A stretch of 64,000 nucleotides of DNA from a virus. Taxonomy: Duplodnaviria > Caudoviricetes. Location of the stretch: positions 1,191-65,190 of IMG/VR virus record IMGVR_UViG_3300021511_000007, one strand, 5' to 3'. Under the pieces are notes generated by a model. That model searched no databases. It was given only the letters and a program-made list of their open reading frames with translations, and was not told the origin of the DNA. Below, piece after piece: positions 23,905 to 46,138 of the stretch (position 1 is the stretch's first letter; the number at the start of each line of letters is the position of its first letter). Made by a program: the position numbers and the translations under genes.

Positions 23905-24520
23905 CGGCTGAAACGCACTATCCTAAAGTGTTTCAGCATTGTTTCAGGGTAACCCCATGATTACAAAGGGCTGAAACGCTTGAAACGCTTGAAACGCAAA
24001 TTCGAGCCTAGTGCAGGGGCGCGCGCACACCCCCGCGTGTATAGGCTCTTGTTTTTTTGTTTCAAACGTTTCAAACGTTTCACTAACACATAACTCATTG
24101 AAATAGATATATATATAGGGGTGTTTTGCTGAAACAAGCCTGAAACGTTTGAAACAAAACCTTACTTATTGTGTGGTTGAATGCGAATATAACGTCATGT
24201 TTTGTGCAAAACCCATATATTAACCAGAAATATCTACAGATTATCTATGGAATAGCTGCTAATCACCCATACACTAACCATGCGTTACCAGCATATCATG
24301 CCCACAATATCTACCAATTATCTCCATAACGTCACCTGACATTTTGGCAGATACGTTTGAAACGGTAATTCCGGGCGAAAAACGTTTTACACCATGGGTT
24401 TTTTGTTTCAAACGTTTCAGAGTGAAACGTTTGAAACAAAAATTGAGGTGCTGATTTGTTTTTCATGCCCGGTTTTCGTTTCATACGTTTCACTGGCGCA
24501 TCGAATTCGATGCGCCAGTG
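23905..24520. repeat. Putative replication origin: TGAAAC(G)/GTTTCA iterons, AT-rich core and palindromes
   Basis: Many TGAAAC/GTTTCA copies in tandem and inverted orientation; 20-bp perfect inverted repeat at 24400-24442; 30-bp perfect palindrome at 24491-24520; non-coding and just downstream of the helicase gene. Confidence 0.6.
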
Positions 24521-24808
24521 GTGTTCCGCCGCGACAGGGAAGATTCGTGGGTGACTCCAATCGATGCGGCTGTAGCGCGGTATTATGAGGTGCAGTAATG
24601 CATTGGATGCCGGTTACGCTTCCGGCGCTGGCGTTTCGGCCCAGCCGTTCACTCGATGCGCGCTTCAGGATTTCTCCTGGCCTAGTCCCCATCGACGATT
24701 CTCCCGCCCATTTTGTCGGTCCAGCTCATGGGCTCGCTGTGGTATGCACCGCTTTCCCGCACCGTCCGGTAGGCTGGGTTTTAGGGTGCCCCAGCCAGCA
24801 CCCAGCAG

Positions 24809-26554
24809 CTACCCCTCGCCGGGTAAAAATACCAACGCATCTATCGACACATACCGAGAATACACCCCTGCAAACCGCCTACCGCTATTGCCCTGCTGAG
24901 CCCCGTCTATCCGTCTCAGGATATGCCCCCACCCCACAGACCACGGTGTTTTTTCTAAGATCTTGCGGAGCCCGTCATGCTTGTTCGCGACCAGCACCCG
25001 GACACCATCCGGCTTGATCCCGACTCTTTCGAGAGCATCGATGGCTTGTGCGGGCCACACATCATCGGTTCGCTGGCCATTACACAGCTCGACCAGTTCG
25101 CCAATCGACCGGCGATAAACCTTCTTTTCGCTGGATACGTCGATCTGCTGGGCCATGATGGCCGCGATCAACTTGTCCTCGTCGTTCTCCGCCTGGACAT
25201 CTCTCACATCCCCGAGGAGGCCATCTAGGGCCGCCACCTTCTCGGCCGCCCTCTCGGTCGTCACTCTGCCGGTAGAGCCCAGGAGCCATGCTCCTGCTAA
25301 TAGAGGCCCATACTGATCCCCTATCCGCTGATTTCCGAAGTGCACGCCGACTGCGCGAGCGAACACCCTGGCGTTGTGGCGCAGCACGTCCAGATTAGCG
25401 AACACCCGCGCTCGCAGCCGACCTGCCCAGTCGCCATCCTCCAGGGCCGCCACCAGCGGCTCTATCTGCTCTGTGAAGCGAAGCTTGTCGGTAGCGGTGT
25501 TGCGCTTCAGGCTGAGCACCGTTACGCGGTTCTCGTCAGCGGTCTGCTGGAGCGGTACCCGGATTGCGATCAGGCAGAACATCGACCTAATGGAGTACGA
25601 CTGAGCCATGCCGTCCGCCCCACCCTTTAGGATGTTTCCGCCCACCTCTGCAGACGCCTGACGCATCAGCCCGAGTACGCGCTCCATATTGGCCGCGGTA
25701 CGCCGGTCCTCGCCCTCAGCCTCGTCGAATGTGACCGGCAGCGCATCGTGCTGCAGTGCTTGGCGCAATCCAGCTTCCGTGGTTTCGCCCTTGGCGGCCA
25801 CGACGAACTCCCCCAGGATGCGTTGTATCACATGCTCGCCGACCCATGATTTGCCGCACCCGGACGGACCGGTGAGCATGATGTGCGGACGCCACTCCAT
25901 GGCGCCGCAGACCAGTGCGGAGACTACCCAGCCGGCCAGTAGGGTGCCGTACAGCGGGTTCTCCCAGTTCAACGCGGCGCAGAGCTTCAGCAACTGCCGT
26001 GCTTCCGTGTCACTCGCACGGGCGTCCATGCAGAGCGGCAACGACGGGAGCGCCTCGTACACGTACCGCGACTCGATGTTGTCTACCTCCACCCGCTCGC
26101 CGTCAACCAAGAGGTGGTCGCCCACATGGACTACTGTCCGGTCATCGTCCCACCACGCTCCGCGGCCACGCAGGCGGTCCATGCGAAATACCCCGCAGCC
26201 GAAGCACGCAGCCAAAATTGCATTGACGGCCATGTCGACCGCGGAGCCCTTGAAGCCCACCTCGGATGGGAACTCGCGCTCCCACCACTGGAGCGGCGCA
26301 AGCATAAATAAGTTGGGCTTTTGGGCGAGTTTCGCGGCAGGAAAATGGATGACCTGCCGACCGCGGGTAGTGATGAAAAAGAACCGGTCTCGGTAGTGCC
26401 CAAGGGGGCGAAAATACTTCTCCGCCCCGTCAAGACCCATGTTGGCCTCGGTGTCGTGGTCCTGACGGGGCTTCTTGCCGCGCCTGGAGTTGATGTATGC
26501 GACTTCGGCAAGCTTGGCAACGTCGTCGTTGCCGGGGGGGGGTGAAGTGGGCAT
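24809..26554 (-). CDS. Replicative P-loop NTPase/helicase (primase-helicase family, no clear primase domain; 581 aa)
   Basis: Walker A 'GPSGCGKS', Walker B 'VTFDEAE', 'RGRGAW.D' motif. Confidence 0.8.
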   Translation of the reverse strand: MPTSPPPGNDDVAKLAEVAYINSRRGKKPRQDHDTEANMGLDGAEKYFRPLGHYRDRFFFITTRGRQVIHFPAAKLAQKPNLFMLAPLQWWEREFPSEVGFKGSAVDMAVNAILAACFGCGVFRMDRLRGRGAWWDDDRTVVHVGDHLLVDGERVEVDNIESRYVYEALPSLPLCMDARASDTEARQLLKLCAALNWENPLYGTLLAGWVVSALVCGAMEWRPHIMLTGPSGCGKSWVGEHVIQRILGEFVVAAKGETTEAGLRQALQHDALPVTFDEAEGEDRRTAANMERVLGLMRQASAEVGGNILKGGADGMAQSYSIRSMFCLIAIRVPLQQTADENRVTVLSLKRNTATDKLRFTEQIEPLVAALEDGDWAGRLRARVFANLDVLRHNARVFARAVGVHFGNQRIGDQYGPLLAGAWLLGSTGRVTTERAAEKVAALDGLLGDVRDVQAENDEDKLIAAIMAQQIDVSSEKKVYRRSIGELVELCNGQRTDDVWPAQAIDALERVGIKPDGVRVLVANKHDGLRKILEKTPWSVGWGHILRRIDGAQQGNSGRRFAGVYSRYVSIDALVFLPGEG

Positions 26555-27006
26555 TACGCCTTTACTCCTTTCCGCATCGCGGCATAATAAAGATCGCTGC
26601 GTTGCTGGTATGTTTGTTCTGTTTTCTTATTCCACCATTTCGACCGTGGCATGACGCACCACATCAGGTCACCAATATCCTCTTGCGCCCTATTTGTATG
26701 CGGCCAATCATCTTCTCCGGCGATCCAGTGAAATGCCACGGGTGCAGTGGTAGCCGCGATTTCAGCCGCCAGTCTCATTGCGTTCCTGGCTGGTTGGCTC
26801 ACGTAGGTACGCTCCACCACGCTCACGGGCACGCCCGCACAGAATGACCAATCATACTCGCCTGGCTGATACTCCCCCGGCCGGACACATACCGCGCTGT
26901 CCGGCCTGCGCCCCCAGTCATCGCCGAACAGCACCCATATGCGCGGCGGGTGGTAGCCTCGGTCGCGCTCGGCGCGGATCTGGCGGGCGTAGGGAGGCAG
27001 TTTCAT
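26554..27006 (-). CDS. Hypothetical replication-module protein
   Basis: MKLPPYARQI...YDWSFCAG; coupled to the helicase start. Confidence 0.6.
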   Translation of the reverse strand: MKLPPYARQIRAERDRGYHPPRIWVLFGDDWGRRPDSAVCVRPGEYQPGEYDWSFCAGVPVSVVERTYVSQPARNAMRLAAEIAATTAPVAFHWIAGEDDWPHTNRAQEDIGDLMWCVMPRSKWWNKKTEQTYQQRSDLYYAAMRKGVKA

Positions 27007-27018
27007 AAATTCACCCAT

Positions 27019-27087
27019 AAAAAAACCCGGCATCGGGTAGCGGCTTGACCGGGAGGGCACCCCCTCCCCCGCTACTCGATACCGGGT
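27019..27087 (-). terminator. Long stem-loop followed by U-tract (terminator/attenuator or small RNA)
   Basis: Minus-strand 19-bp stem ACCCGGTATCGAGTAGCGG / CCGCTACCCGATGCCGGGT (one G-U pair, one mismatch), inner hairpin, then a T run. Confidence 0.6.
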
Positions 27088-27324
27088 CGTGTGTGTTTTA
27101 GTACAGCCATTCTCCGAATCAGGGTCAAGTCATCATCGGTAGGCATGTTCATTGTAACGCATATCGGTGGTAATGGCTGGCGTTATGCGTATCATTTAAT
27201 CTTGCGGCGATATCTCCGCTTGCTCTTTTCTAGCTTCCGTTCCATTTCGATGTTATCGAAACAAAAAGCTGGTATGCAGCCATTACGCTTTCCATATTCC
27301 TTGCGCATCCAATTCACCCATGCT

Positions 27325-27453
27325 CTATATTCTTTCGGTGCTTTCATTCGCCTCCACCTTTATCGCGTGGTCCGGGCGCTCGATCTCACCGCGAATCGCC
27401 AACATCAGCATCACGCTGGATTGAACTCCCGCACCAAGGGACAAAAAAACCAT
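27325..27453 (-). pseudogene. N-terminal stub of a PAPS-reductase/PP-loop-like phage protein
   Basis: GAGGAGG RBS, then MVFLSLGAGVQSSVMLMLAIRGEIERPDHAI, ending after 42 aa where the family normally continues (FADTG). Confidence 0.6.
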
Positions 27454-27502
27454 GGCGATTCCTCCTCTACCAAGGGATTGTGGTTATGCAGTCAACACTC
27501 GT

Positions 27503-27877
27503 CTACCTCGGCACATCCTCAACCCCCCGCACCACGGCAAACACCCCGCCCCGGGTCTCGACATGTGCGCCAAACCGCGCCTGCTCGGCAGTAACGCGGC
27601 CCTTTGGGGCCTTGACCTCCAGCGCGAGGAACACGCCGACGGTCCGACCGACCATTTCGGGGGTGATCACCACGGGCCGTATCCCAATCAGGTCCGACGA
27701 GCCTTTGGCCAGACCGAAGCGCACCGGCCGAGCGTCGATCAGGAGTAGGTCGCGCCCCTGGCGCCGCACGTCGCGCCCCTGCCATGCGACGCCTGTATTA
27801 TTGCGCCACACGGTATCGCCCTGCTCAGAGCATGCCAGCATGACATCTCGCTGGATGTTGGATTCGGTTGCTGCCAT
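27503..27877 (-). CDS. VRR-NUC domain nuclease
   Basis: 'WRNNTG...GL.KGSSDLIG...ALEVK...GR....Q..F' PD-(D/E)xK VRR-NUC signature. Confidence 0.9.
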   Translation of the reverse strand: MAATESNIQRDVMLACSEQGDTVWRNNTGVAWQGRDVRRQGRDLLLIDARPVRFGLAKGSSDLIGIRPVVITPEMVGRTVGVFLALEVKAPKGRVTAEQARFGAHVETRGGVFAVVRGVEDVPR

Positions 27878-27911
27878 TTTTGGCCCCTCTGTGTTTGATT
27901 TTCCATGCTGG

Positions 27912-27967
27912 ATCAGACGGTTACGTGGGTAATCGTTTTATGCGGAGCTGCATAACGCCCGTTAACC
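27912..27967 (+). mobile_element. attI-like site heading cassette array 1
   Basis: 52 bp 51/52 identical to 33066-33117, with identity ending at GTT; layout TGCATAA-N5-GTTAACC. Confidence 0.6.
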
Positions 27968-28189
27968 AGCCCGCGTATTCCATGCGGTCACAGCTTCTTC
28001 TGGTGTAGCAAAATCGTCTGTTTCTGGCTCAACTGCGCATTCTGGATTTACACATTTCGCAGCCTCCCTGTTATCCCCGCAGGCAACGACTAGAGCGCCC
28101 CTGCCGCAGAATGGGCAGGGTAACAAAGCAGTCAACGCGGACGCTTCGCGTCCTGCGTCGTCTGCTGTTTCGGTGTCTTGTTCAGCCAT
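27962..28189 (-). CDS. Lar-like restriction-alleviation Zn-finger protein (inverted cassette gene)
   Basis: 'LLPCPFCG...C...C...EEAVTAWNTR'; start lies inside attC 28118-28239; stop is the TAA of the GTTAACC core. Confidence 0.75.
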   Translation of the reverse strand: MAEQDTETADDAGREASALTALLPCPFCGRGALVVACGDNREAAKCVNPECAVEPETDDFATPEEAVTAWNTRAG

Positions 28190-28239
28190 TGCCGCAACCT
28201 CGAGTTTAGGAGTAAGCGCCGGTTACCGCAACGTTAGGT
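28118..28239 (+). mobile_element. attC-like site
   Basis: GGGTAAC-aaagcagtcaacgcggacgct...agcgccggttaccgcaac-GTTAGGT imperfect inverted repeat. Confidence 0.75.
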
Positions 28240-28300
28240 GCAAAAAAAAATAATTACTCACCGTGTAACGCAAGAATAAAAAACGCTACGGTAAGGTATA

Positions 28301-28900
28301 TTGAATACAATGACACCATTAGAATCAACGGCCGCAGGCCATTTAATAAAGAAGCTGCTTGATCGGGTGCTGGAATATCCAGCCCACATTGCCTTAATGA
28401 TTTTGGCCAGTCTTCTCTCACCCATTCTGGTTTGGCTAAAATCCCAAGGATTAGCAATTTGGATACCGGATACAGTGCCAACATGGCTACTAATATTGTT
28501 ACTTCTACCAACATTTGTTGTACTCCATGCTACTTATAAAAATCTAAAAAAATATACGGGATTTGAACTACTGCACTACACAAACAAAGATATTTCTATG
28601 ATCCCCAAGGGGATTAAAGTTTATCTGACCATTCATCCTAAATTCGATATTTTAGACCCTGAAGATATTGTTTGTGAAAAATGCGACATGCTTTTATCGA
28701 AAAACATCGTACATGAACATCCAAATAATCCTGATGGCTGGTCCTGTTTATTTTGCGAATTAAACATTACCGGCGATGAATACAACAAATCTACAGAGGT
28801 GGCTAGAAACTTAGCTATCGGTTACTTCTATAAAACAAGACATCGAATGCCCGGCATCAAAGATCCGGTGACATTAAAGGACATAGACCCTAATCAATAA
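28301..28900 (+). CDS. AT-rich cassette gene: TM helices plus C-terminal CxxC/CxxC Zn-ribbon
   Basis: Two hydrophobic helices, CEKC and CLFC; conventional integron orientation. Confidence 0.75.
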   Translation: MNTMTPLESTAAGHLIKKLLDRVLEYPAHIALMILASLLSPILVWLKSQGLAIWIPDTVPTWLLILLLLPTFVVLHATYKNLKKYTGFELLHYTNKDISMIPKGIKVYLTIHPKFDILDPEDIVCEKCDMLLSKNIVHEHPNNPDGWSCLFCELNITGDEYNKSTEVARNLAIGYFYKTRHRMPGIKDPVTLKDIDPNQ

Positions 28901-28950
28901 ATACACCCGACATCCTTCGTCGGCGGCTGAAGCAAACGCCAGGTATGTAA

Positions 28951-29499
28951 ATGGATAAATTAAAAGAAGAAGTCATTACTCATCTTTTGGGACTCCTAAA
29001 AAAGTGGTTGCCACATCCGAAATCTTATTTGCTACTGCTAGTAACAGTGCTCCTATCAGCATCCCTTTTTGTGTATCCTGAGAAAGCCCTAGAATTAGTT
29101 CAGAAAAAACCAACACCAGAAATAATATCGGACCTAAAATGGATAATTTCACCGTGGCTCTTATTCCTTGGCGTTTTGGTTGCTCATTTTCAAACTGTCG
29201 CATATCTTCACTCCCAAATCACGAAGGAAAAATTCGATATAAACAATTACGGACTTCATGAATTTCCCACCACAGCGCGGGCATATAAACTTAAACTAAA
29301 GCAAAATAATCAGAACACAGAGCCCACCCAGTATTTGTGTGAATATTGTGCTGCTAATAATTATGAATCTCCCTTGCAACCTGTTGGGTTCAACAGGGGT
29401 GTTTCGTTTTTCCTTAAATGCCACAAATGCGGGCTTATAATTCCAATAAAAACAATGTCTAATGCACTTGAGCAACTAATCAGGTCTAAAATCACCTAA
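28951..29499 (+). CDS. AT-rich cassette gene: TM helices plus C-terminal CxxC/CxxC Zn-ribbon
   Basis: Hydrophobic helices, CEYC and CHKC; stop codon lies within the R'' ACCTAAC, as in classical cassettes. Confidence 0.8.
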   Translation: MDKLKEEVITHLLGLLKKWLPHPKSYLLLLVTVLLSASLFVYPEKALELVQKKPTPEIISDLKWIISPWLLFLGVLVAHFQTVAYLHSQITKEKFDINNYGLHEFPTTARAYKLKLKQNNQNTEPTQYLCEYCAANNYESPLQPVGFNRGVSFFLKCHKCGLIIPIKTMSNALEQLIRSKIT

Positions 29500-29556
29500 C
29501 TAGCGCCTACAGCCGACCGCGCAAACGACGCGCGGCGGCTGAGGCAAGCGTTAGTC
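29494..29556 (+). mobile_element. Canonical short attC site (63 bp)
   Basis: ACCTAAC-tagcgcctacagccgaccgcgc-aaacgac-gcgcggcggctgaggcaagc-GTTAGTC; the left arm carries extra bases relative to the right arm. Confidence 0.9.
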
Positions 29557-29889
29557 GCTCAATGCTTTCCGCGCCTTATGCCCTCTATCCTGTAGGACAA
29601 AATTATCTTCTTCAGCTTGACGGACCGCTCGTATCGTGACCCGATCAAGTGTTCCATCCAATGCCAGCGGGCTGCTCCAATAGTTATCGTCTTCCGCATA
29701 GAAAGAAAGCGCTTCTTGTAGATATGCGATTCGCTCTGTCGCCTCCCGCAATAAGTGCGCAGTTTTTCGGTCTTTTACGTGCGGTGCCATTTGCTGGTAA
29801 TGATGACGCAATCGACTAACAAGCGCGTCAACGCCGACCGCCGGGTCTGCGGCGGCTTCGGGGTTCGTGGTGTCTGTGGCTTCAGTCAT
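29551..29889 (-). CDS. Hypothetical protein (inverted cassette gene, 112 aa)
   Basis: Cassette ends GTTAGTCG (29550) and CGACTAAC (29813) are exact complements; RBS and ATG lie in the attC loop. Confidence 0.75.
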   Translation of the reverse strand: MTEATDTTNPEAAADPAVGVDALVSRLRHHYQQMAPHVKDRKTAHLLREATERIAYLQEALSFYAEDDNYWSSPLALDGTLDRVTIRAVRQAEEDNFVLQDRGHKARKALSD

Positions 29890-29942
29890 TTCTGCATGTC
29901 TCCTGTGCTCAATCCGGCGTCTCGTTACGCTTTACGTTAACG
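29814..29942 (+). mobile_element. attC-like site
   Basis: GACTAAC-aagcgcgtcaacgccgaccgccgg...ccggcgtctcgttacgctttac-GTTAACG. Confidence 0.8.
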
Positions 29943-29944
29943 AT

Positions 29945-30364
29945 TTACGCAGCCGACACCGCAGCATCGGCAGAGACAAGAAAGGCGTATGCCCAGTTGT
30001 CCTTATCACTATCCAATAAACCCGCTCTTGATGGGTGCGGGTCATGTACCATCTTGCCGTTCAGCCCCACTACGGCGTGCTGTGTGCCGCGCTCTGTCTT
30101 TCCATAGATCAGGTGGTAGCAATCCACCGCGCCGAACTTCTGGTGCGTATAGAAGCTGAACGTGTTTGAAATCAGGTGGAAATATCCGAGACTCCCGAGG
30201 AAGCCATTCAGTGTCTCGTTGAAATGGATGTCGTCGTTCTTCTCGTTGAAATGCGGGATGTCATACGGGTCCATCTCCAGGAGAGAGGCAATACATGCCC
30301 GCTGACAATCGCCGTACACACCGTTATCCGGGTCATTCAATATCGTCTGGTCTACTGGATTCAT
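29945..30364 (-). CDS. Phage hypothetical protein (Cys/His motif, 139 aa)
   Basis: 'GDC.RACIASLLE...PHF...HAVVG..G.MVHDPHPS' family motif. Confidence 0.75.
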   Translation of the reverse strand: MNPVDQTILNDPDNGVYGDCQRACIASLLEMDPYDIPHFNEKNDDIHFNETLNGFLGSLGYFHLISNTFSFYTHQKFGAVDCYHLIYGKTERGTQHAVVGLNGKMVHDPHPSRAGLLDSDKDNWAYAFLVSADAAVSAA

Positions 30365-30461
30365 GGCTTCAATTCCTCGTTGTTCCTGCCCGGCGTCGGG
30401 TTACGCAAATCCATCTTCATCCGTCTGGTAATGAAAAATGTGGCGTGCCTCACTCGCTCGG

Positions 30462-32867
30462 TTATGCCGTCATTCGATACTCGCTGAGATCAATAACCGC
30501 ATCAGCCAGCGCCCATGCATCCGGATTGTGAGACACGAAAAACTTCCTCTCGTAACCGCCTAGCTCCAAGGCCGCCCGGTCCATCGCATAAAACTGTTGC
30601 TTTCGTTCAGCGGTAAGCCCGTCCTCGGCTTCGTCGGCGAATAGTGTGCCGAACCGCATCCCGGCTGCGTCTTGGTGATACAGCCCGACCGCATCGGTCA
30701 GCGCCTTGTCGAGCCAGACGGCCTCGCCGCCGCTCTTGTGCACAATGCTGGCTTCCAGGCCGGTCTCGGCGTCGATCACCGAGATGTCGAATACCTCTTT
30801 GAGGATGCCGTTGGTCTTGTTTTGGCGCTGGGTCACGATGCGCACCGTAAACCGCGGTCCATACGCTTCTCGCAGTAGTCGATTGGCTATCTCCGCGATG
30901 CCGGGCCCGGCATCCTCAATGGAGAGATCCACGACACCGTGCAGGCCGGCGGTGAGGCGGCGCCAGTGCGCGATCTCCTCTTGGAGATAGGCGGCTCGCT
31001 CGGTGACGCTGGCGCCGTCGCTGATCTCCCGGGCCAGGGTGTCGCGCTCGGCCCGGCGCTGGGCCAGCTTGGCGGAGCAACCCTCCAGATCCGCACTGCT
31101 TTCGTTCAGGGCATCATCTGCCTTGCGGAGTACACCCTTGGCGTGATCCACGGCGTCCGCTTCATCGGCCGGCGGAAGCGCGTCCAACTCTTTCTGTTCG
31201 GCGGCCGTATGAGCCTGGAAGGCGCGGTTGATTTCGGATTCAGCGTCATTCAAGGTCTTTATTTCGGCGTCGATCTGACGCCGGTCTGTAGCTTCCGTTC
31301 CGTTGGCGATAGCCAGCCGCTCGGCCAAATCGACCAACTGCTGCTTCGCCTGCTCGATATCCTCCTGCGCACCCTGCAGGGCCGGGAGGAGCGCGGCGAC
31401 GCTTCGTGCTTCGGTGATTTGCTGGTTCAGCTTGTGCTGTTTGCCTTGGAGTATGCGGTACTCGGCGTCAGGGTCGCCCATGGCTGCGAACGCGGCCTCT
31501 GCTGCGCTCCGGCGAGCGTCGATGGTGTGATACTCGCCCAGCTTGTCCTTGCGCGCGGCATCCGTCGTGAGCGCGCTCTTTGCCGCTTGTATCGCATCGC
31601 TCAGGAGGGGGCACGGGGTGCATTTGTCGCCGAAGAGCGCTTGCTTCGTCAGTGACGCTCTGCGCTCCATATCATCCTGTCGTCCGCGCAGAACCCGCTC
31701 CTCCTGGATTACCGCCGCGAGCGTGTGAACGATGTCGGTCAGGCCGATGGCTGCTTGGCGCTTGATCTCGATCTTGGTCCGCCACTCACCAGCCTTACCC
31801 TCCATCTCCGTGGAAAGTCTTGTCAGGGTCTCCAGGTCCTTGGTGGCGCCGCGGATCTCATTGGCTCGACCGAGAATTTCGCCGCTCCTGGCGATGCGCT
31901 TCTTGGCGGCGGCTAAATCGCTGGCGATCTGATCGCGGGTGCGCTCTGCGCCCTTGATAATGGCGGCTCCCCGCTGGCGCGTTGCATCACGGCCCCGGTT
32001 GATCCTCTTTATTTCTGTTGTATGGCCCTGCTGCAAGCCGGCAATACGAGCCTCCAGCTTGCCACGGGCCTCTCTGATCCTCTCCTGATCCAGACCCTCG
32101 GAGACGGCTCGGTCGTATTCCGACTTGGCGCGGGCGTGCGCCTCGGTGGCATCCCGGCGGGACGTGCGACAATCGGTCACCGCCTGCTCGATGCCGGGGA
32201 TCTCAATTTCGATTACCCCGGCCCTGGTGCGCTTGGCGTCCAGCCCGGCGGCCTCCTCTTCGATGCCCCCAGCGGCGCGCTCCAGCTGGAGCCGCACCTT
32301 CGCGGCCTGCTCTGCCAGTGCGTTAGGCTCGTCCAGGTGCAGCAGATCGCGCATCAACCCCTTGGGGTCGTCGTAGTCGGCCAGGCGGGGGGCGTTCTGC
32401 GCGCGGAATGCCGATAGGTAATATACCGACTGGGAGCCCAGGACGGCCTCCAGGCACGCATTGTAGGTGCCGGCTTTGCCGTCGCTGGCGGTGTGATCCG
32501 GGAGCGTCACGGGCACCCATTCGCCGTTGTTGCGGACGTGCAGGAACGCCTTGGTGCTTTGCGCTTTCTTGGTCTGGCGATAATGGATAGTGCTGCGGTA
32601 CAGTTCGCCGCCGTGCTCCCATTCCAGTACGCGCTCACCATCGTCACCGAAATGGTCGTACATGGACCCCGGGAGTTGAGGGGGATTCAGCCACGGGGAC
32701 ATGCCGAGATTGAGCAGCGTGGACTTGCCCATGCCGTTGTCGCCTTTGATAGCGACCGTTACGGCGTCGGCTGGGATGACGCCGGCCACTTCGATGGTGA
32801 TCTCATCGCGGTTGAGCCCGGCCCGGATGCCGATCGCGCCGCGCAGGGTTAGGGTTTTGGGGTTCAT
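30462..32867 (-). CDS. sbcC: SbcC/Rad50-like SMC ATPase (801 aa)
   Basis: Walker A 'GDNGMGKST', long coiled coil, CxxC hook (CTPC..L), signature 'KSGGE', Walker B 'LFADEAE', 'FVSH'. Confidence 0.9.
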   Translation of the reverse strand: MNPKTLTLRGAIGIRAGLNRDEITIEVAGVIPADAVTVAIKGDNGMGKSTLLNLGMSPWLNPPQLPGSMYDHFGDDGERVLEWEHGGELYRSTIHYRQTKKAQSTKAFLHVRNNGEWVPVTLPDHTASDGKAGTYNACLEAVLGSQSVYYLSAFRAQNAPRLADYDDPKGLMRDLLHLDEPNALAEQAAKVRLQLERAAGGIEEEAAGLDAKRTRAGVIEIEIPGIEQAVTDCRTSRRDATEAHARAKSEYDRAVSEGLDQERIREARGKLEARIAGLQQGHTTEIKRINRGRDATRQRGAAIIKGAERTRDQIASDLAAAKKRIARSGEILGRANEIRGATKDLETLTRLSTEMEGKAGEWRTKIEIKRQAAIGLTDIVHTLAAVIQEERVLRGRQDDMERRASLTKQALFGDKCTPCPLLSDAIQAAKSALTTDAARKDKLGEYHTIDARRSAAEAAFAAMGDPDAEYRILQGKQHKLNQQITEARSVAALLPALQGAQEDIEQAKQQLVDLAERLAIANGTEATDRRQIDAEIKTLNDAESEINRAFQAHTAAEQKELDALPPADEADAVDHAKGVLRKADDALNESSADLEGCSAKLAQRRAERDTLAREISDGASVTERAAYLQEEIAHWRRLTAGLHGVVDLSIEDAGPGIAEIANRLLREAYGPRFTVRIVTQRQNKTNGILKEVFDISVIDAETGLEASIVHKSGGEAVWLDKALTDAVGLYHQDAAGMRFGTLFADEAEDGLTAERKQQFYAMDRAALELGGYERKFFVSHNPDAWALADAVIDLSEYRMTA

Positions 32868-32894
32868 TGGGGGCGCTCCACCTATGTCCTCGTG

Positions 32895-33032
32895 TTAATG
32901 CGAATTGCGCCGGTTGTATCGGAGCCACCAGCGCCCATCCGAGCATGGTCTGGCGATCAGTTCCAGCTTGTGCCGCTTACCCGTGCGATGCATATGGATA
33001 TTGATCGTGATTGTTGCCGGAAGTCTTGCCAT
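32895..33032 (-). CDS. Small hypothetical protein (45 aa)
   Basis: AGAGGGG RBS shared with the VRR-NUC gene; MARLPATITINIHMHRTGKRHKLELIARP... Confidence 0.45.
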   Translation of the reverse strand: MARLPATITINIHMHRTGKRHKLELIARPCSDGRWWLRYNRRNSH

Positions 33033-33065
33033 TTTGGCCCCTCTGGTGTTGTTTTTCAGCAGCGC

Positions 33066-33121
33066 ATCAGACGGTTACGTGGGTAATCGTTTTATGCGGA
33101 GCTGCATAACGCCTGTTGGGC
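33066..33121 (+). mobile_element. attI-like site heading cassette array 2
   Basis: Duplicate of 27912-27963; TGCATAA-N5-GTTGGGC. Confidence 0.6.
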
Positions 33122-33125
33122 CGAC

Positions 33126-33314
33126 TCAAATGTTCTCCAAATCTCCATCAATATCAAGCACCGTTTCCCCGGTATCCATATCCTCCAGTTCGGTGACTTT
33201 GATCACGTCATAGGCTCCGCCGTTTACCGGCGTGTCCGGATGCCACTGGGTCAGCGCGTCCCGCAGTTGCCTGACGGTGGAGATGTTTTCAATTACCTTG
33301 CCCTGCTTAAACAT
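33126..33314 (-). CDS. Hypothetical protein (inverted cassette gene, 62 aa)
   Basis: AGGAG RBS; MFKQGKVIENISTVRQLRDAL... Confidence 0.6.
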   Translation of the reverse strand: MFKQGKVIENISTVRQLRDALTQWHPDTPVNGGAYDVIKVTELEDMDTGETVLDIDGDLENI

Positions 33315-33335
33315 CGTGTTCTCCTGGGAATTGCT

Positions 33336-33423
33336 TCCCAATAAAGTTTTCAAGCCAACCCTGATGGGTCGGCGGCGGATCTCAGGCCCCGCAGCGGGGG
33401 GGCGGCTGAAAACGGCGTTATGC
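33336..33423 (+). mobile_element. attC-like site (degenerate R'')
   Basis: TCCCAAT-aaagttttcaagccaaccc...gggcggctgaaaacggc-GTTATGC. Confidence 0.65.
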
Positions 33424-33780
33424 CGACGTATCCGGCTCCAGGAATCGAACCGGTTTTCCAACACTACGGCTGTATTTCAGTTCCTTGCGCGTAGACTCAC
33501 CGATGTAGCCGCCAACGTTAAGAACGAGCACCTCATCTGCCAGATCTATTTTTCGTAAATGGAGTTCATCTAGTGCCCGTTTCTCGGGGCCGTCTTCTCT
33601 GATCGGGGCGTCTCCCGCATGGATCATTACCCCAACTGACAGTACTATTCGGCCAGCAAGTGACTCCTCTCTGTGCGCTGTTATCCACGCATCCGCGAAC
33701 CGAGTAGAGCCGCACAGACAAACGATCTGCGGCATAACAAGGCTATGAACCCGACCTGTAGACTCCTGTGTTTCGCTCAT
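33418..33780 (-). CDS. Nucleoside-deoxyribosyltransferase-like/DUF4406-type protein (inverted cassette gene)
   Basis: 'IVCLCGSTRF...LDELHLRKIDLADEVLVLNVGGYIGEST..E'; cassette ends GTTATGCC/GGCATAAC are exact complements. Confidence 0.75.
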   Translation of the reverse strand: MSETQESTGRVHSLVMPQIVCLCGSTRFADAWITAHREESLAGRIVLSVGVMIHAGDAPIREDGPEKRALDELHLRKIDLADEVLVLNVGGYIGESTRKELKYSRSVGKPVRFLEPDTSA

Positions 33781-33844
33781 GCTCAGTGTCTCCTGTGTTC
33801 TGGTGTTGTTCGGTGTGGGGCGGGTTATGGCCAGCCCGTTAGAT
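33732..33844 (+). mobile_element. attC-like site
   Basis: GCATAAC-aaggctatgaacccgacc...gggcgggttatggccagccc-GTTAGAT; the loop holds the antisense RBS and ATG. Confidence 0.8.
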
Positions 33845-33848
33845 TTAC

Positions 33849-34135
33849 TCAGCCAATCACCGCTATTGCAGTCTTGTCCTGCGGCAGCATCCCGTAAATC
33901 TCTGCCAAAGTTGGCGCTATGGCTTCGCTCTTCATCTCAGCCAAAAGCCCGTTGCGGTTCCTTCCGAATTCATGGGTATACACAGGGCGTCCCAATGTTT
34001 TTTCCACGGCCTCATGGAACACGCCAAATGGGCAGCACAGTTTGTATTGTACCATTTGAAAACAGCTATGCCGGCATGGTCTTGCTCTTTCCACCATTCA
34101 CTTTCATACAGTTTAATCGCTTGCTCTTTTGTCAC
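33849..34135 (-). pseudogene. Frameshifted phage hypothetical gene in a cassette
   Basis: MTKEQAIKLYESEWWK...IAVF continues as QMVQYKLCCPFGVFHEAVEKTLGRPVYTHEFG in another frame; one base appears missing in the T run near 34060. Confidence 0.6.
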
Positions 34136-34198
34136 CGGAGCGCGTAGACCCCTGCGGGTTTCAGGTAGGGCGCCGCGGCGCCCGGTTAAGCTTGTGCG

Positions 34199-34519
34199 TT
34201 ATGAATACTGAGATTCCGCCCACTTCTCCCAGGAAAATCCGCATTCGCAGTCCGGCCACTCTCTGCCAGAGAAGTCCTGGGCTCCGTAATCGGCTGGTAT
34301 GGTGCAATTAGGACACATCGGCACCTGAATAATGATGCGAGTGCCAGGAGGGAATTCTGGGGCGCTCAGCTTCAGGTCCAGGGTCGCCCCGATATTCTCG
34401 TCACCCTCTTTGGGGTAACTGGTAATCCACGTCGGGCGCATCTGATCGCTGCGTTCGCCGTCATAGCAATCGGGCTCCATGCGGTATGTTTGGCTGTCGT
34501 GCATATGCATGCGATTCAT
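34199..34519 (-). CDS. Zn-finger hypothetical protein (inverted cassette gene, 106 aa)
   Basis: CPNC and CEC motifs; cassette ends GTTATGAAT/ATTCATAAC are complementary over 9 bp. Confidence 0.7.
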   Translation of the reverse strand: MNRMHMHDSQTYRMEPDCYDGERSDQMRPTWITSYPKEGDENIGATLDLKLSAPEFPPGTRIIIQVPMCPNCTIPADYGAQDFSGREWPDCECGFSWEKWAESQYS

Positions 34520-34610
34520 AACAAATCATTCCAGCCGATCCCGCGCGTCGGCATTTGAGTTCAATTCGGGCATTGTGCCAGCGCGGGACCGGCTGATTTC
34601 AACGTTAGAT
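34516..34610 (+). mobile_element. attC-like site
   Basis: TCATAAC-aaatcattccagccgatcccgcgc...gcgcgggaccggctgatttcaac-GTTAGAT. Confidence 0.85.
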
Positions 34611-34766
34611 GCGCAAGCGGAGTAGTTCCACTTTCAAGGCTTCGCGTTCCTCGTTTGTAATCCACACTTCCCACTTTGACCGCCCCATGGCCTCCTGCCG
34701 TGCTTTGAATGTCTTGCCCCTAGCGGTCACCGCCGCTGGGGGTTCTGGCTTGCGGGCCTGGTTCAT
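34605..34766 (-). CDS. Small hypothetical protein (53 aa, inverted cassette gene)
   Basis: Hand translation MNQARKPEPPAAVTARGKTFKARQEAMGRSKWEVWITNEEREALKVELLRLRI; stop falls in the GTTAGAT core. Confidence 0.55.
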   Translation of the reverse strand: MNQARKPEPPAAVTARGKTFKARQEAMGRSKWEVWITNEEREALKVELLRLRI

Positions 34767-35285
34767 GGCAAAAAACAGCAGGGCGCGTAATCAAGTGGGC
34801 GCCCTCCGAGTCTACCGGGGAGAATATTCCATCCGCACCGAGCTGATGCAACCATGTGCGAAACCTCCACTCTGAGCGCATTATGCTGCCGGTCAAATCC
34901 ATTAAAATTCTGTTTCCACCGACATCCAACATCGCACTCCGGGGGAGTGTTGATGTTGGCGGGGTCTGCCGGAGCAGGTCTCATGCCAGCCGAAACCGCT
35001 CAACGCGCCCGCCCTTGGATTGGGCCAACTTGGACGCGAACATATACGCCTCGTCGTAAGAGGAGCAGCCGGTATTTCCGCCACCGAACCAGCTCCCGGC
35101 GCCGGTTAACTCAACATGGTAGATTCCGGATATTATGGTATAGGTTACGTCGAATTTCATATCAGTCTCCGGTTCGGTGTTTTGTTTCAGTAACTATATT
35201 GTCTCATATCGTTTCCGGAAACGCAAGCTCTTTCACTGCAAATTCAAAAGAAAATTCAACTGCTCCCAGGCTCCGCAGCAGGCGC

Positions 35286-35372
35286 ACCTAACCAGGCAAT
35301 AAACCGGAGCGCTTAGACCCCGGCAGCTCCCCCGGGCGCAGCAGCGGCGCCCGGTTGTTGCAAGCGTTGGGC
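35286..35372 (+). mobile_element. attC-like site
   Basis: ACCTAAC-caggcaataaaccggagcgc...gcgcccggttgttgcaagc-GTTGGGC. Confidence 0.8.
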
Positions 35373-35643
35373 GTATCAACCAAGTACCTTACCGGAGTGT
35401 CGCTACCTCGTGAAAGATTTTGGGACATCCCAGTCCCCAAAATCGACTCGCCTACGCGACAACCTTTGGTGCCCCGGCACGCCCTGCGGTCGGCGCTGGA
35501 CTCGACAAACACACGCCGAGCCCAACACCGCCCACAAATGGCTTTACGGCGTGTCGGATGTCCTTGCAGATTTTCTCCGCGGCTTCGGGATACACCCCCC
35601 TTCGCCACTACGAAAATCCGCCCGGACCTACGCCTACCGGGGA

Positions 35644-35877
35644 CTACCAGCCTTCGCTTCGCTCTCCATGGCTGGCAGCGATCGGTGTTCTGTCTCTTTC
35701 GGACGCCGTTATTGCACCGTCGATTTTCCGCATTGATGGCACCTTGCCAGTGTTTAGCCAGCGCAGGTAAATAGCGTTAATCGGCTTCGGTGGGGTACCG
35801 AGGGAGTACGTCCATATGCTCACGTAGTCTGCTATTCGTCTGCACCGTTCGTGTTTTTTGAAAGAACTCATAACCAT
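35644..35877 (-). CDS. Hypothetical protein (inverted cassette gene)
   Basis: Starts at or near the GTTATG of the R'' of attC 35868. Confidence 0.45.
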   Translation of the reverse strand: MVMSSFKKHERCRRIADYVSIWTYSLGTPPKPINAIYLRWLNTGKVPSMRKIDGAITASERDRTPIAASHGERSEGW

Positions 35878-35954
35878 TCATTCCTACCGAGCCGTGAGAC
35901 TCCGGCGGCTGATCTCCGGTCCGCTGTGCGGCCGGCAGAATTCAACCGTTAGAT
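35868..35954 (+). mobile_element. attC-like site
   Basis: TCATAAC-cattcattcctaccgagccg...cggccggcagaattcaacc-GTTAGAT. Confidence 0.75.
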
Positions 35955-36158
35955 TTACAAGTTATTCTCAATATCCGTAGGCACCTGACTGAAAGCAATG
36001 CCAACCATGGTGTGGATCTCGTTAAGAATCATCTCATCGGGAGCGTTAAGCTCAATCAGCCGCCCAAGCCGAAGACTATGGCTCAGCACGCTGTGCTTCC
36101 ACTTAGGCGCTGAAACAGGCAATAAATAAGCCGCTTGTTTTTTGCTTGCTGCGCGCAT
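35955..36158 (-). CDS. Hypothetical protein (inverted cassette gene, 67 aa)
   Basis: Cassette ends GTTAGATT (35948) and AATCTAAC (36177) are exact complements; the left attC arm follows. Confidence 0.65.
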   Translation of the reverse strand: MRAASKKQAAYLLPVSAPKWKHSVLSHSLRLGRLIELNAPDEMILNEIHTMVGIAFSQVPTDIENNL

Positions 36159-36179
36159 TTGCTCTCCCCCAATCAGAAT

Positions 36180-36482
36180 CTAACAACTGCATAAAGCCAG
36201 ACCGCCCCGACCGGCGCGGCTCCCCCAACCCTCTTTCCCAGCCATCTCCTCTACCCGAGCCTTTCTCTTGGCTTCGAGAACAATCCCTGCTGCCACCTCG
36301 CTCCATCCCGGAATGTTGCGTCTCGCTATTTTCAAGACATATCCTCCGGGCCGCTTTGTTGACAGCGCGTTTCTAGCAAGCACCACTGCGCACGTAGGAA
36401 CTGCGTCGCTGTTAACGGAAAGGCGCCGATGGTGTTGGGCTATCGCGATTACCAGCGCTGTTTTCATCGTGTTTTCGCTCAT
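36180..36482 (-). CDS. Hypothetical protein
   Basis: MSENTMKTALV... start within the tracked ORF. Confidence 0.5.
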   Translation of the reverse strand: MSENTMKTALVIAIAQHHRRLSVNSDAVPTCAVVLARNALSTKRPGGYVLKIARRNIPGWSEVAAGIVLEAKRKARVEEMAGKEGWGSRAGRGGLALCSC

Positions 36483-36495
36483 CTTATTGTCTCTT

Positions 36496-36735
36496 CTATT
36501 GGTTCCAAGGAGAGAGTTTACGCCATTCATCCATGATCGAGTCGGCTGAGAAAATCAGCGGGTCAGCTACCGCATTCTCAAAATCTTTCCACGAAATGCG
36601 TTGCTCGATTTCATATACCATGCCCGCCCTGTTTTCGCTGACTCTCAAAGTAACCTCGCGCATAACATTGATATCGAGGTCAATGTTTGCGTGTGGTCCT
36701 AGTTCATTGGCCAAATTTTCGAGCCAGTGTTTCAC
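36496..36735 (-). CDS. Hypothetical protein (79 aa)
   Basis: ORF directly downstream of sbcD. Confidence 0.5.
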   Translation of the reverse strand: MKHWLENLANELGPHANIDLDINVMREVTLRVSENRAGMVYEIEQRISWKDFENAVADPLIFSADSIMDEWRKLSPWNQ

Positions 36736-36741
36736 GATGAA

Positions 36742-37962
36742 TTATTCGTGCTGCTTTGCAGCAGACAGTCCGAGCAACCGATTAACGATCTCTTCCGCCT
36801 CCATGCTGCGCAACATCTCCAGCCGATCCTCCAGCGCCTGTTGTTGATCTTCGTCGCCGGTTGTCTTGAGCCAGTACGCCAGTTTCTCGTCCAGCGTTGC
36901 CGCTCTGGAGATGCCCGCGGCACGTACAGACTGGATCGGCAGTACCGTGCCTTCGAGCTTGACGGCATCGCAGTGCCCGAACAGTGCGCGGATGGCTGGC
37001 TTGTCCACTGTGGCGGCGTACTCCTGGTCTACCGTCCAACGGATGCGCACGGCGTCGTCTTCGGTGGCGTCGGCGGCGAGCTGGCCGAGCTCGCCCATGT
37101 CCGGCGGCCCGTCAAACTCTATTTCCAGTAGCTGCCGGGTGGGGGACGGGATGAACCGGTACGCCACGCTACCAGGCTCGATGTCCCACAGGAGCCAGCC
37201 CTTTGGATCATGGTCGCCGTGCACCAGTCGCGCCAGGCTGCCGGGGTAGGCAATAATCTGGGTGCCCTCATGCCAGTCCTGGTGGGCATGGATGTGTCCA
37301 GTCATGATGGCGTCGGCACCACTACGGAACAGCAGCTCCTCGGCGAACTCATGGTCGGGCGAGACTATCGCGAACTTGGATTCGGTCAGGCTACCGTTGA
37401 CGGTGCCGTGGGTGACCAGGGTGGTCGGTAGGCCGTGCTGCCGAGCGGCAGCTGCGATGATGGCAAACCGCTGCATGATGTTGCCGACATAGTGCTGCGC
37501 GCCGTGCTCCATAATGGCCGGGTTGGCTTTGTTGAGGCTGGGGAGTGCGAAGAACACGCCGTCGCCAGCTTTGGCGCTGGCATTGGGACTGAAGTCGCAA
37601 TCCTCATCGATTTCATACCACTCCCCCGCCTGGAGTAACAGCGCCCGGGGGCGGTCTGCCACATGGATCGGGAACTTGCGCCTGAGAGTGCGGAGGATAT
37701 CAAGCGAACCAGGCCGGTCATGGCTGGCAGTGCCGTAGAGGACCACGGTCGGCATGGTGTCCGCCAGTCTGGCCACCTGCGTCACATACGCCAGCACGGC
37801 AGGCTCATGCACGCCCATGCCGTGGTCGAAGCTGTCGCCAGCGATCACGGCCGCATCGCAGCCTTCCTTGGTGGCGCGGTCTACGGCGGCCACCATGGCG
37901 CGATCAACCCACTTGAGGTGTTTCGGGCTGTAGTGGAGGTCGCTGATGTGGGCGGTTTTCAT
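36742..37962 (-). CDS. sbcD: SbcD/Mre11-like metallophosphoesterase nuclease
   Basis: MKTAHISDLH, 'AGDSFD', 'GTASHD', 'HG', 'GHIH', 'YPGS' motifs. Confidence 0.9.
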   Translation of the reverse strand: MKTAHISDLHYSPKHLKWVDRAMVAAVDRATKEGCDAAVIAGDSFDHGMGVHEPAVLAYVTQVARLADTMPTVVLYGTASHDRPGSLDILRTLRRKFPIHVADRPRALLLQAGEWYEIDEDCDFSPNASAKAGDGVFFALPSLNKANPAIMEHGAQHYVGNIMQRFAIIAAAARQHGLPTTLVTHGTVNGSLTESKFAIVSPDHEFAEELLFRSGADAIMTGHIHAHQDWHEGTQIIAYPGSLARLVHGDHDPKGWLLWDIEPGSVAYRFIPSPTRQLLEIEFDGPPDMGELGQLAADATEDDAVRIRWTVDQEYAATVDKPAIRALFGHCDAVKLEGTVLPIQSVRAAGISRAATLDEKLAYWLKTTGDEDQQQALEDRLEMLRSMEAEEIVNRLLGLSAAKQHE

Positions 37963-38023
37963 TTTTTCAGCTCCAGCAGCATGTCTTCCAGCTTTTTGTT
38001 TTGGGCGGCCCCGGCGGCGTCCA

Positions 38024-39373
38024 TCAGAACGGGTCCTCATTGGCGGGGCTGGCGTCGACGTGCTGCTCTGCCGCCTTCGGGTCCAGGAACCCCTGTAGCA
38101 TATTGATCTGCGCCGCCAGCTTCTCGGGGTTGTGCCCATCCTCAGCGGTATAGCCGTTGCCGCTCAGCAGCTCGCCGAGATCAGCCTGACTGTAACCGAG
38201 CTCGTCCGACAAACGCTTGCGCTCTGCTCGGAGGTTGTGGATGGCGGGATCGGGATCGACCGCGCCAGCCTGAGCTGCTGCCGGCTCCGGCTCGGGTTTC
38301 CGTTGATGCGGCCCGCCCAATTCCTGCTCGGGCTCGGGTTCCGCCTGCTCGGGCTCCAATGCCGGATCGAAGCTGTCGGGGCCGGTGAGGCGCGCCGCAT
38401 CGGCAGGCGCGGGCTCCGCGGCGGCAGCGGCTTCTTGTTGGGCCAACAAGGCCACCGTGTCAATCCCGGAAGTAACGAGGTGAATAATCTCTTTTTGCTC
38501 CTTAACCTGGATGCCTTTTTTCCAGTCCATCCTGGACACCTCATCCAGCGTTTTCGAGAACGAGAACAGCGGTTTTCCCTGGAACAGGCCAGCTATGTGA
38601 CCGAAGTCGCGCTTAACGTAGTCGAGCACGCCCATATCACGAGGGTCGTCAGGGTCTCCAGCGAATTCGAGCAACGAATAGATCGACTTCGTTTTGAGCG
38701 CGAAATACATGCTTCCAGTCGGGATGCCAGGTATGCGGAAATATAACTCTGCGGAGTGTTCGCAGTCTCCGTTCAGGAACAGCTCGCATTTATTCGGCTT
38801 GCACGGGCCTTGTTCGACGGTCTCCCTCCCTCCCCACCGTCGGCGCGCCATCGGGTCCGGCTTCACCTCCTCTTTCGCCAGGCAGGTCCTCCCGCCATCC
38901 TTTGAGTCCTGGCTCCACCGAAACAGCTTGCCCATCTTCCATGACTCGAACCGCTGTCGGCACACGCTCTCGACATCATCACCAAAGAACACGACCGGGA
39001 ACGAGTAGACGCGCAGAACGCCATCTCCACGATCTTCCCCGTACTTCTCCGTCACCATCGCAGCCAACCCGGGGATCGAGCACCGAGACTGCGCGAACGT
39101 GAAGTAAAGACTGTTGGCTGGCTGCAAGGGTCGAATCTTGAACCACGGCGCGGCCTTTTTTAAGGCGGCCTCAATTTCGTCCCACGTAGCACCGGCAGCT
39201 ACGCCGTCAGCGAATATTTTGGCTGCGCCGGGTATCGGCTTCAGATTACTGCGCCCATCGCCGTGTTCGGCTTTGCGGGTGAGCTTTTTCACTCCAGAAC
39301 TGATGTCCCCCGCAATGGGTGGGCGTGACACTCGCTGTGGTGCAGCAGCAGTATGTTGTACGCTTGCGTTCAC
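38024..39373 (-). CDS. Gp3-like/recombination-associated protein (449 aa)
   Basis: 'RPPIAG.I..GVKKL...YF...KYGEDRGDG...FPVVF...C.P..C......C....L.F.IP' pattern; upstream of sbcD. Confidence 0.6.
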   Translation of the reverse strand: MNASVQHTAAAPQRVSRPPIAGDISSGVKKLTRKAEHGDGRSNLKPIPGAAKIFADGVAAGATWDEIEAALKKAAPWFKIRPLQPANSLYFTFAQSRCSIPGLAAMVTEKYGEDRGDGVLRVYSFPVVFFGDDVESVCRQRFESWKMGKLFRWSQDSKDGGRTCLAKEEVKPDPMARRRWGGRETVEQGPCKPNKCELFLNGDCEHSAELYFRIPGIPTGSMYFALKTKSIYSLLEFAGDPDDPRDMGVLDYVKRDFGHIAGLFQGKPLFSFSKTLDEVSRMDWKKGIQVKEQKEIIHLVTSGIDTVALLAQQEAAAAAEPAPADAARLTGPDSFDPALEPEQAEPEPEQELGGPHQRKPEPEPAAAQAGAVDPDPAIHNLRAERKRLSDELGYSQADLGELLSGNGYTAEDGHNPEKLAAQINMLQGFLDPKAAEQHVDASPANEDPF

Positions 39374-39555
39374 TGTTTTCTCCCGTTCTCCCGGCAGTCA
39401 GCCGGATGGATTATTTCGATGATTCGGCTTGCCCTGGCGTGCCGCTCACTCTGAGTAACAGACAGCCGTTCGCCGTCGACGATGATCCACGCCTTGAAGC
39501 CTGTGCTGCCGGCTGCGGCAACGGCTGCATCGATGGCGGCCTGTGCGTCTACCAT
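39370..39555 (-). CDS. Small hypothetical protein
   Basis: Overlap-coupled ORF in the leftward operon. Confidence 0.5.
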   Translation of the reverse strand: MVDAQAAIDAAVAAAGSTGFKAWIIVDGERLSVTQSERHARASRIIEIIHPADCRENGRKQ

Positions 39556-40049: not shown

Positions 40050-40101
40050 GGCTTCTGTTCCTTGTTGTTCCTGCCCGGCGTCGGGTTGCGCTTGTCACCG
40101 G

Positions 40102-40209
40102 TGAAAGTATGCTTACATGAAAGCAGGCTTTCAGCCCATTGTCAAGGTTGTTTTCCACGAAAGATACTTTGCAAGATGATCTTGCAAGACGGGTGTAAGT
40201 ATGCTTTCA
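40102..40209. promoter_or_regulatory. Divergent promoter region with three 16-bp operators
   Basis: TGAAAGTATGCTTACA (40102), TGAAAGCAGGCTTTCA (40118), TGTAAGTATGCTTTCA (40194); TTGACA on the minus strand at 40140-40145. Confidence 0.7.
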
Positions 40210-40217
40210 TCTTAGGC

Positions 40218-40975: not shown

Positions 40976-41012
40976 AATTTCTTAAAAGCCATCGGCTATT
41001 TGGAGAAATACG

Positions 41013-45709: not shown

Positions 45710-45799
45710 AACTAACGGCTGAATCAGCGGGCCGCGCACCGGAGCCAGCGCGACAGCCCCGCCAGAATTTACCGGCTCCGCTGTATTTTATTGTTGGGC
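45710..45799 (-). mobile_element. attC-like site (top strand on minus)
   Basis: Minus strand: GCCCAAC-aataaaatacagcggagcc...ggcccgctgattcagcc-GTTAGTT; extra bases on the left arm. Confidence 0.8.
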
Positions 45800-46134: not shown

Positions 46135-46138
46135 GTCC

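Follow-up and report, generated by a model that had tools for sequence, protein, structure and literature searches.

A 52-bp element that occurs twice in the genome of a phage (Caudoviricetes) stands at the head of two cassette arrays of the integron type, between these arrays and nuclease genes of the phage. The DNA analyzed here, referred to as the window, is a stretch of 64,000 nucleotides that corresponds to bases 1191-65190 of the 65,190-base IMG/VR virus record IMGVR_UViG_3300021511_000007. We conclude that the clusters of small open reading frames (ORFs) flanking the element are genuine cassette arrays bearing attC sites, the recombination sites of integron cassettes. For the element itself we favor a composite explanation, to which we give about even chances: an integron-type cassette boundary fused to a duplicated leader of nuclease genes.

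Two cassette arrays opening at a duplicated element

The two copies of the element (hereafter the 52-mer; coordinates in Table 1) lie on the plus strand and agree at 51 of 52 positions, a match reached by none of 100 shuffles and for which the chance expectation is none. The sole mismatch, C/T, is placed 4 nt before the end and leaves an exact repeat of 48 nt. To the right, identity between the copies stops after the terminal GTT. To the left, similarity reaches a total of 86 nt (27878-27963 versus 33032-33117, 86%) and takes in a ribosome-binding site (RBS) block and the sequence ATGGCA, whereas similarity past ATGGCA into the coding regions was not significant (score reached by 401 of 2000 shuffles). 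The original prediction, made from the sequence, had described the two copies, the end of identity at GTT and a weaker similarity extending into the RBS and start of the next core gene, and all of this was recovered here. So were a TTATGC-N6-GCATAA dyad and a TGCATAA-N5-GTT motif, which are present in each copy and, with no mismatch allowed, nowhere else in the window.

Within the 86 nt, mismatches are unevenly distributed (1/52 in the 52-mer versus 11/34 in the adjoining leader; Fisher p = 1e-4), so the 52-mer is either constrained or recently homogenized. Its last 18 nt consist, on the plus strand, of GCATAAC, a 4-nt spacer and GTT with the first cassette bases. GTT boxes are found at -41, -26 and 0, together with an inverted AAC box at -7. 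A second dyad, CGGTTAC-N4-GTAATCG, sits in the remaining 34 nt and is, in the window, also confined to the 52-mer copies.

Numerous small ORFs terminate in TAAC and are followed by imperfect palindromes. We searched for attC sites with a covariance model based on an alignment of 15 different attC sites from nine plasmid class 1 integron regions, covering the R box, the bulged L box and one further pair, and run with filters off. Nine matches were obtained in the window at E<0.1 (17.2-36.3 bits), all at inter-ORF palindromes. E-values of this model are rough and the empirical score gap to background is the better guide: the top score was 14.4 bits in 11 related phage loci (153,132 bases), and among 79 other viral loci (479,753 bases) matches came from one locus only. 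The model also found four sites in Pseudoalteromonas phage H101 (22.6-29.4 bits) and one in Tetrasphaera phage TJE1 (29.2 bits), and no site in Polaribacter phage P12002L; all three phages are reported to carry attC clusters (PMC9892861). The inter-ORF elements show the R''-L''...L'-R' organization with a bulged L box that the model describes. The 52-mer does not: only its R''/R' pair, with 4 nt between, was aligned (6.5-7.6 bits, E>1). Two weaker plus-strand sites, at 33336-33423 (8.0 bits) and 29814-29941 (about 8 bits), look like decayed attC copies.

All attC top strands between 28 and 36 kb are on the plus strand. At those sites of arrays 1 to 3 for which both strands scored, the preferred one was 16-26 bits ahead (35.0 versus 9.1, 22.6 versus 5.0 and 19.6 versus 3.6 bits). 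Because the top strands are plus in arrays 1 and 2, both 52-mers are located at the 5' (attI-side) end; that they head two arrays, as first proposed, agrees with the plus-strand orientation of every attC site found to the right of either copy. The nine boundaries listed, at seven attC sites and the two 52-mers, all read (C/T)G|TT. In four cassettes (starting at 27962, 29551, 33418 and 34605) the TAA stop codon of a minus-strand ORF corresponds to the TTA directly after the G.

Relative to the attC top strand, the majority of cassette ORFs are antisense. In array 2, a codon-usage test supported the minus-strand ORFs and rejected the long plus-strand ones. The exception is the low-GC island at 28234-29550, where plus-strand ORFs were supported and where the stop codon of ORF 28951-29499 falls in the R'' box of attC 29494-29556, the canonical cassette layout. 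A third array in the window is antisense too, since its minus-strand attC sites stand in a plus-strand gene block. We found the same orientation relative to annotated ORFs for 4/4 sites of phage H101 (locus L029, 1420-3488) and 3/3 sites of a viral contig (L069, 2066-3049), while phage TJE1 has the usual sense layout. This contig is the only one of the 79 loci with a homologue of the 120-aa cassette ORF (33418-33780) that has attC sites; its homologue is 47% identical, and an attC overlaps its start, as in the window. An AAC-N4-GTT arrangement was not found at the array ends of H101 and L069. A repeated promoter-like stretch comes before, and an RBS after, two of the contig's sites (2066-2120 and 2719-2802), an arrangement reminiscent of promoter-stem-loop modules.

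Homology searches with the cassette ORFs returned for the 182-aa ORF no relative besides itself, and for the 106-aa and 103-aa ORFs no relatives in IMG/VR. Pfam gave no match for 14 array ORFs, nor for three more (112, 112 and 120 aa). As a separate observation, a 179-nt segment of array 2 with a 47-aa ORF (35451-35629) is skipped by contigs in three of four sequencing runs (window 35405-35680). The pieces of ~46 nt flanking it far exceed the phage in depth and have loose ends on either side; it looks as though a short element common to other, more abundant genomes were interrupted here.

Origin of the boundary and competing explanations

In the composite explanation, the 52-mer would be the backbone side of the junction at which cassette arrays of the integron type meet core genes of the phage. 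Its terminal 18 bp would represent inverted integrase-type boxes, either those of a truncated attC, with R'' fused to R', or those of an attI-like, double-stranded simple site. Both arrays open at its G|TT, where we infer that cassettes were inserted or exchanged by an integron integrase; with no such gene in the phage record, the enzyme is presumed to be the host's, acting in trans. The remaining ~34 bp and the RBS block would constitute a duplicated 5' leader of nuclease genes pointing away from the arrays, a VRR-NUC gene at copy 1 and a 45-aa ORF followed by an SbcC-like gene at copy 2. This leader part may be kept identical by selection on a cis function, as an operator or RNA element, or by gene conversion.

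The genes around the 52-mers are on the minus strand, and the repeat stands upstream of their ATG. Most of the 52-mer can be read equally well as a duplicated 5' leader because it is continuous with an RBS and a start codon. The window contains a second duplicated leader (D10; 30360-30406 versus 40045-40091, 47 nt, 91%), which precedes two non-homologous genes away from attC sites, so that leader duplication appears to be a habit of this genome. The D10 leader carries a small hairpin and an RBS, and one of its copies comes after a sigma-70-like promoter in a divergent control region (40050-40175). A scan of 24000-41000 for consensus sigma-70-type promoters (-35/-10 with 16-18 nt spacing) revealed none in or beside either 52-mer. 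No predicted RNA fold shared by the two copies was found, and Rfam 15 gave no match at gathering score in the window, with microRNA-type noise (E>2) in 27400-36800. The consensus of extracytoplasmic function (ECF) sigma factors (-35 AAC, -10 TCTGA) can be fitted by eye to the minus strand of the 52-mer; we gave this fit no weight.

No tyrosine or serine recombinase was identified in the 65,190-base record, which is 84% complete according to CheckV. The integrase family PF00589 had no match at E<=1 in the record, while 14/14 control genomes were matched. The original prediction of receptor sites with neither an adjacent intI nor a cassette promoter (Pc) was correct in this respect, as no intI and no consensus promoter adjoin the copies. 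Its suggestion that the 52-mer might be found beside a bacterial intI gave a negative answer: exact matching, which misses diverged copies, located neither half of the 52-mer in 185,579 species genomes of bacteria and archaea, and exact and structured patterns retrieved none from IMG/VR or from these genomes, with the same limit. Local alignment with attI1 of plasmid R100 was not significant (scores reached by 55 and 75 of 1000 shuffles), which is weak evidence given that attI classes differ widely.

We then obtain a mixed outcome for the claim that the element is an attI-like receptor. The arrays are genuine, the element lies at their 5' end in attC polarity, and the first cassette follows a G|TT (CG|TT and TG|TT) with an inverted AAC at -7 (-6 in attI1). 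On the other side, the recombinase, an exact bacterial copy and significant attI1 similarity are missing, most of the element resembles a leader, and its terminal boxes are as close in appearance to a truncated attC as to an attI.

Using the covariance model, we found no attC sites or arrays in 11 related phage loci, and the arrays are therefore insertions in this lineage. In relatives, the gap between sbcD and sbcC measures 72 nt (L011) or is filled by other coding sequence. The primase and SbcC-like relatives (11 loci, <=54% identity; SbcC loci compared by eye) showed nothing similar to the 52-mer and have coding sequence at the position of the repeat. The phage collection contained no near match to 24000-36000, and by protein only Leptospira phage LE1 (34%). 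The phage itself is nearly unchanged in runs from three other vent-metagenome studies. In contigs of four vent runs, no alternative cassette, empty site, joint or loose end was present at either junction among the matches listed, and the different first cassettes sought after the 52-mer were thus not seen in the three other metagenomes holding the phage. No RNA sequencing runs holding the phage are listed.

Several of these observations weigh against the composite explanation. The terminal box pair is by itself not significant, and any repeat in two copies would show an identity that stops at one common base. The integrase was not found in a record that is 84% complete, and cassette polymorphism was not seen at the junctions in four vent metagenomes (contigs only, among the matches listed). 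Antisense cassette ORFs are atypical of integron cassettes. Finally, a cis function of the leader has neither a sigma-70-type promoter nor a shared predicted RNA fold to support it.

The strongest competitor, which we nevertheless consider somewhat unlikely, is purely regulatory. It holds that the 86 nt are a duplicated promoter, operator or 5' untranslated region that co-regulates two nuclease operons, that AAC-N4-GTT has no role in recombination, and that arrays merely build up upstream since insertions are tolerated there. The extension of the repeat to the RBS and ATG, the two dyads of operator size found nowhere else in the window, and the D10 leader before non-homologous genes and away from attC all agree with this view. 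In addition, the plus-strand ORFs of array 1 are convergent with the operon, so the downstream genes plausibly need a start signal of their own. However, no consensus promoter was found in either direction, and neither a shared RNA fold nor an Rfam family supports a regulatory element. Nor does regulation account for the fact that each copy borders an array of the correct polarity precisely at CG|TT or TG|TT with an inverted AAC.

We consider it improbable that the whole 52 bp form a full attI-like receptor, with several integrase-binding boxes, for the capture of cassettes out of host integrons. Conservation extends over all 52 nt next to a diverged flank, position and polarity relative to the arrays are correct, and the boxes (GTT at -41, -26 and 0, AAC at -7) recall those of attI1 (GTT at -76, -58, -51, -32 and 0, AAC at -6). 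Yet three GTT in 52 nt are close to chance, the similarity to attI1 is not significant, no intI occurs nearby or at a distance, matches in bacterial genomes or IMG/VR are lacking, and the first cassettes do not vary among the matches listed.

In the likely source run, the Logan unitigs are interrupted within both 52-mer copies, as expected for a 48-nt exact repeat, and the order of the three segments consequently rests on the original assembly. An inert relic (a recent segmental duplication or a gene-conversion tract, without function of its own) or a repeat-induced assembly misjoin is very improbable: although there are only two copies, unitigs break at both, and gene conversion between repeats 5 kb apart could yield a perfect core that stops where homology stops, the same sequence and neighbors recur at >=99% in two further runs from other studies, the three segments have similar depths (21.3, 17.6 and 25.0), and their order agrees with the sbcD-then-sbcC gene order of relatives.

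The composite explanation can be extended to a proposal that we regard as doubtful, namely that an integrase-less phage keeps two docking sites, cut-down attC sites fused to nuclease leaders and loaded by host integron integrases, through which it would sample host cassettes, including a Lar-like anti-restriction gene, and ferry them between hosts. For the question of how a phage lacking both intI and attI acquires cassettes, the 52-mer offers a concrete, sequence-defined candidate entry site. Were it active, virulent phages would receive integron cassettes by way of defined sites and carry them, and the 52-mer would illustrate the origin of an attI-like site from a truncated attC. Were it inactive, it would be a duplicated leader beside cassette arrays, and the arrays would remain notable for their at least nine attC sites, mostly antisense ORFs and, beside one of them, a group II intron remnant.

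Comparison with known systems

Phage genomes are already known to carry clusters of attC sites that lack an integrase, termed CALINs (Qi et al. 2023, PMC9892861). What is new here is the boundary module, present in duplicate, and the antisense layout. The window resembles the CALIN phages, as presented in the cited part of PMC9892861, in combining attC sites and small cassettes with the lack of an integrase gene. Its scores (17-36 bits) span those of H101 and TJE1 (22.6-29.4), and H101 shares the antisense arrangement of ORFs and attC. It differs by its three arrays, with at least nine attC in about 65 kb, two of which start at a duplicated 52 bp. GTTRRRY motifs are noted at CALIN boundaries in that part of PMC9892861, which describes no repeated boundary module.

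With attI1 of plasmid R100, the 52-mer has in common the location at the 5' end of an array, the crossover-type G|TT, an inverted AAC 6-7 nt upstream and a divergent neighboring gene. In contrast to attI1, it has no intI, no recognizable cassette promoter and no significant similarity, and its neighbors are nucleases. Truncated attC sites in a class 1 array (L016; after aadA1 and after aac(6')-Ib) are alike in having an R'' heptamer, 4-6 nt and an R' heptamer at a cassette boundary, with the L boxes and stem missing; the spacing in L016 is 6 nt. They differ in that the phage box pair is fused, twice, to about 34 nt of unrelated conserved sequence and to the leader of a core gene.

Genomic attG sites (bioRxiv 10.1101/2022.09.11.507474), as characterized in the part of that preprint used here, are similarly double-stranded, located outside integrons and cleaved at G|WT, and they offer cassettes a route into a genome without attI. 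Unlike the 52-mer, attG sites are of very low specificity (GWT), which alone would not explain the same position in both copies. Hotspots of attG have a right-hand motif, and the right side of the 52-mer is now cassette DNA. A last parallel is provided by the PeSL (promoter-stem-loop) cassettes of T4-type phages, in which repeated regulatory modules border small accessory ORFs in hyperplastic regions and are thought to mediate module shuffling by recombination (PMC2839356, PMC4122927, in the portions cited). PeSLs flank many ORFs and act through homologous recombination in these accounts, whereas here there are two copies, at array ends only, and the inter-ORF elements score as attC.

The third array and other features of the window

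The features of the arrays, the leaders and the neighboring genes are collected in Table 1. The SbcD-like partner of the SbcC-like gene is encoded at 36742-37962, beyond array 2.

Table 1. Coordinates of the 52-mer copies, attC sites, arrays and neighboring features in the window
Feature	Position	Strand	Basis or remark
52-mer copy 1	27912-27963	+	terminus GCATAAC-GCCC-G|TT; 34 nt upstream of minus-strand VRR-NUC ATG
52-mer copy 2	33066-33117	+	terminus GCATAAC-GCCT-G|TT; 33 nt upstream of minus-strand 45-aa ORF ATG
Diverged leader part with conserved RBS block, copy 1, before VRR-NUC	27878-27911	-	pairwise similarity
Diverged leader part with conserved RBS block, copy 2	33032-33065	-	pairwise similarity
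Array 1	27962 to attC ending 29556	+	attC polarity
First cassette, array 1	27962-28233	+	Lar-like ORF (minus, 27962-28189) and attC 28118-28239
Low-GC cassettes (GC 0.45)	28234-29550	+	plus-strand ORFs 28301-28900, 28951-29499
Array 2, five cassettes	33116-35948	+	attC 33336-33423 (weak), 33732-33844, 34516-34610, 35286-35372, 35868-35954
attC	34516-34610	+	covariance model, 36.3 bits
attC	29494-29556	+	covariance model, 35.0 bits
attC	35286-35372	+	covariance model, 25.1 bits
attC	35868-35954	+	covariance model, 23.8 bits
attC	28118-28239	+	covariance model, 21.4 bits
attC	33732-33844	+	covariance model, 17.2 bits
attC	45710-45799	-	covariance model, 24.9 bits
attC	46444-46531	-	covariance model, 22.6 bits
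attC	46139-46267	-	covariance model, 19.6 bits
VRR-NUC nuclease gene, 124 aa, reading away from array 1	27503-27877	-	PF08774 1.2e-7; phrog_93
45-aa ORF, starting at copy-2 RBS/ATG, weak coding potential	32895-33032	-	ORF list, codon-usage test
SbcC-like gene, 801 aa	30462-32867	-	preceded by 45-aa ORF
Third array, attC 45710-45799, 46139-46267, 46444-46531	45710-46531	-	antisense to plus-strand ORFs
Group II intron remnant, 5'-truncated, adjoining third array	46760-47367	-	domains V-VI 46760-46834, maturase-like ORF 46876-47367

In the third array, a 193-nt direct repeat (45525-45717 versus 46259-46451, 79%) spans the 3' portion of two small ORFs along with the neighboring attC R' box, which suggests from the sequence that a cassette was duplicated inside the array. 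The group II intron remnant beside it was recognized by domains V-VI (RF00029, 36.5 bits; gathering score 40) and by a 163-aa maturase-like ORF upstream (PF08388, 22 bits; cut-off 23). Class C group II introns target attC sites. A plasmid array (L017) presents an annotated group II intron maturase gene after dfrA14, where the attC of that cassette would lie. An 11-mer, TAACGGGCGTT, identical to the copy-1 junction is located at 46771-46781 (minus strand) and was evaluated as a head of the third array; it was ruled out, as it sits in intron domain VI (RF00029). The chance expectation of this identity is estimated at roughly 0.03, and we did not count it as support.

Elsewhere in the window, iterons of the TGAAACGTTTGAAAC type occur on both strands at 23970-24492, in an 856-nt gap adjoining the primase gene that is likely a replication origin. 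A 422-aa protein (38024-39292, minus strand) has a Gp3-like 'recombination directionality factor-like' domain (PF18897, 6e-15) in this integrase-less record. A single ORF of 4299 aa (47440-60339, minus strand) contains internal repeats of 732-735 nt and combines PHROG matches of unknown function with primase-like and endolysin-like segments. Toward its right end, the window carries repeats at 62155-62328 and 63922-63998: the 9-nt unit GGGCRTACT, in tandem with about 14 or more copies, and the 6-nt unit CGGGTN.

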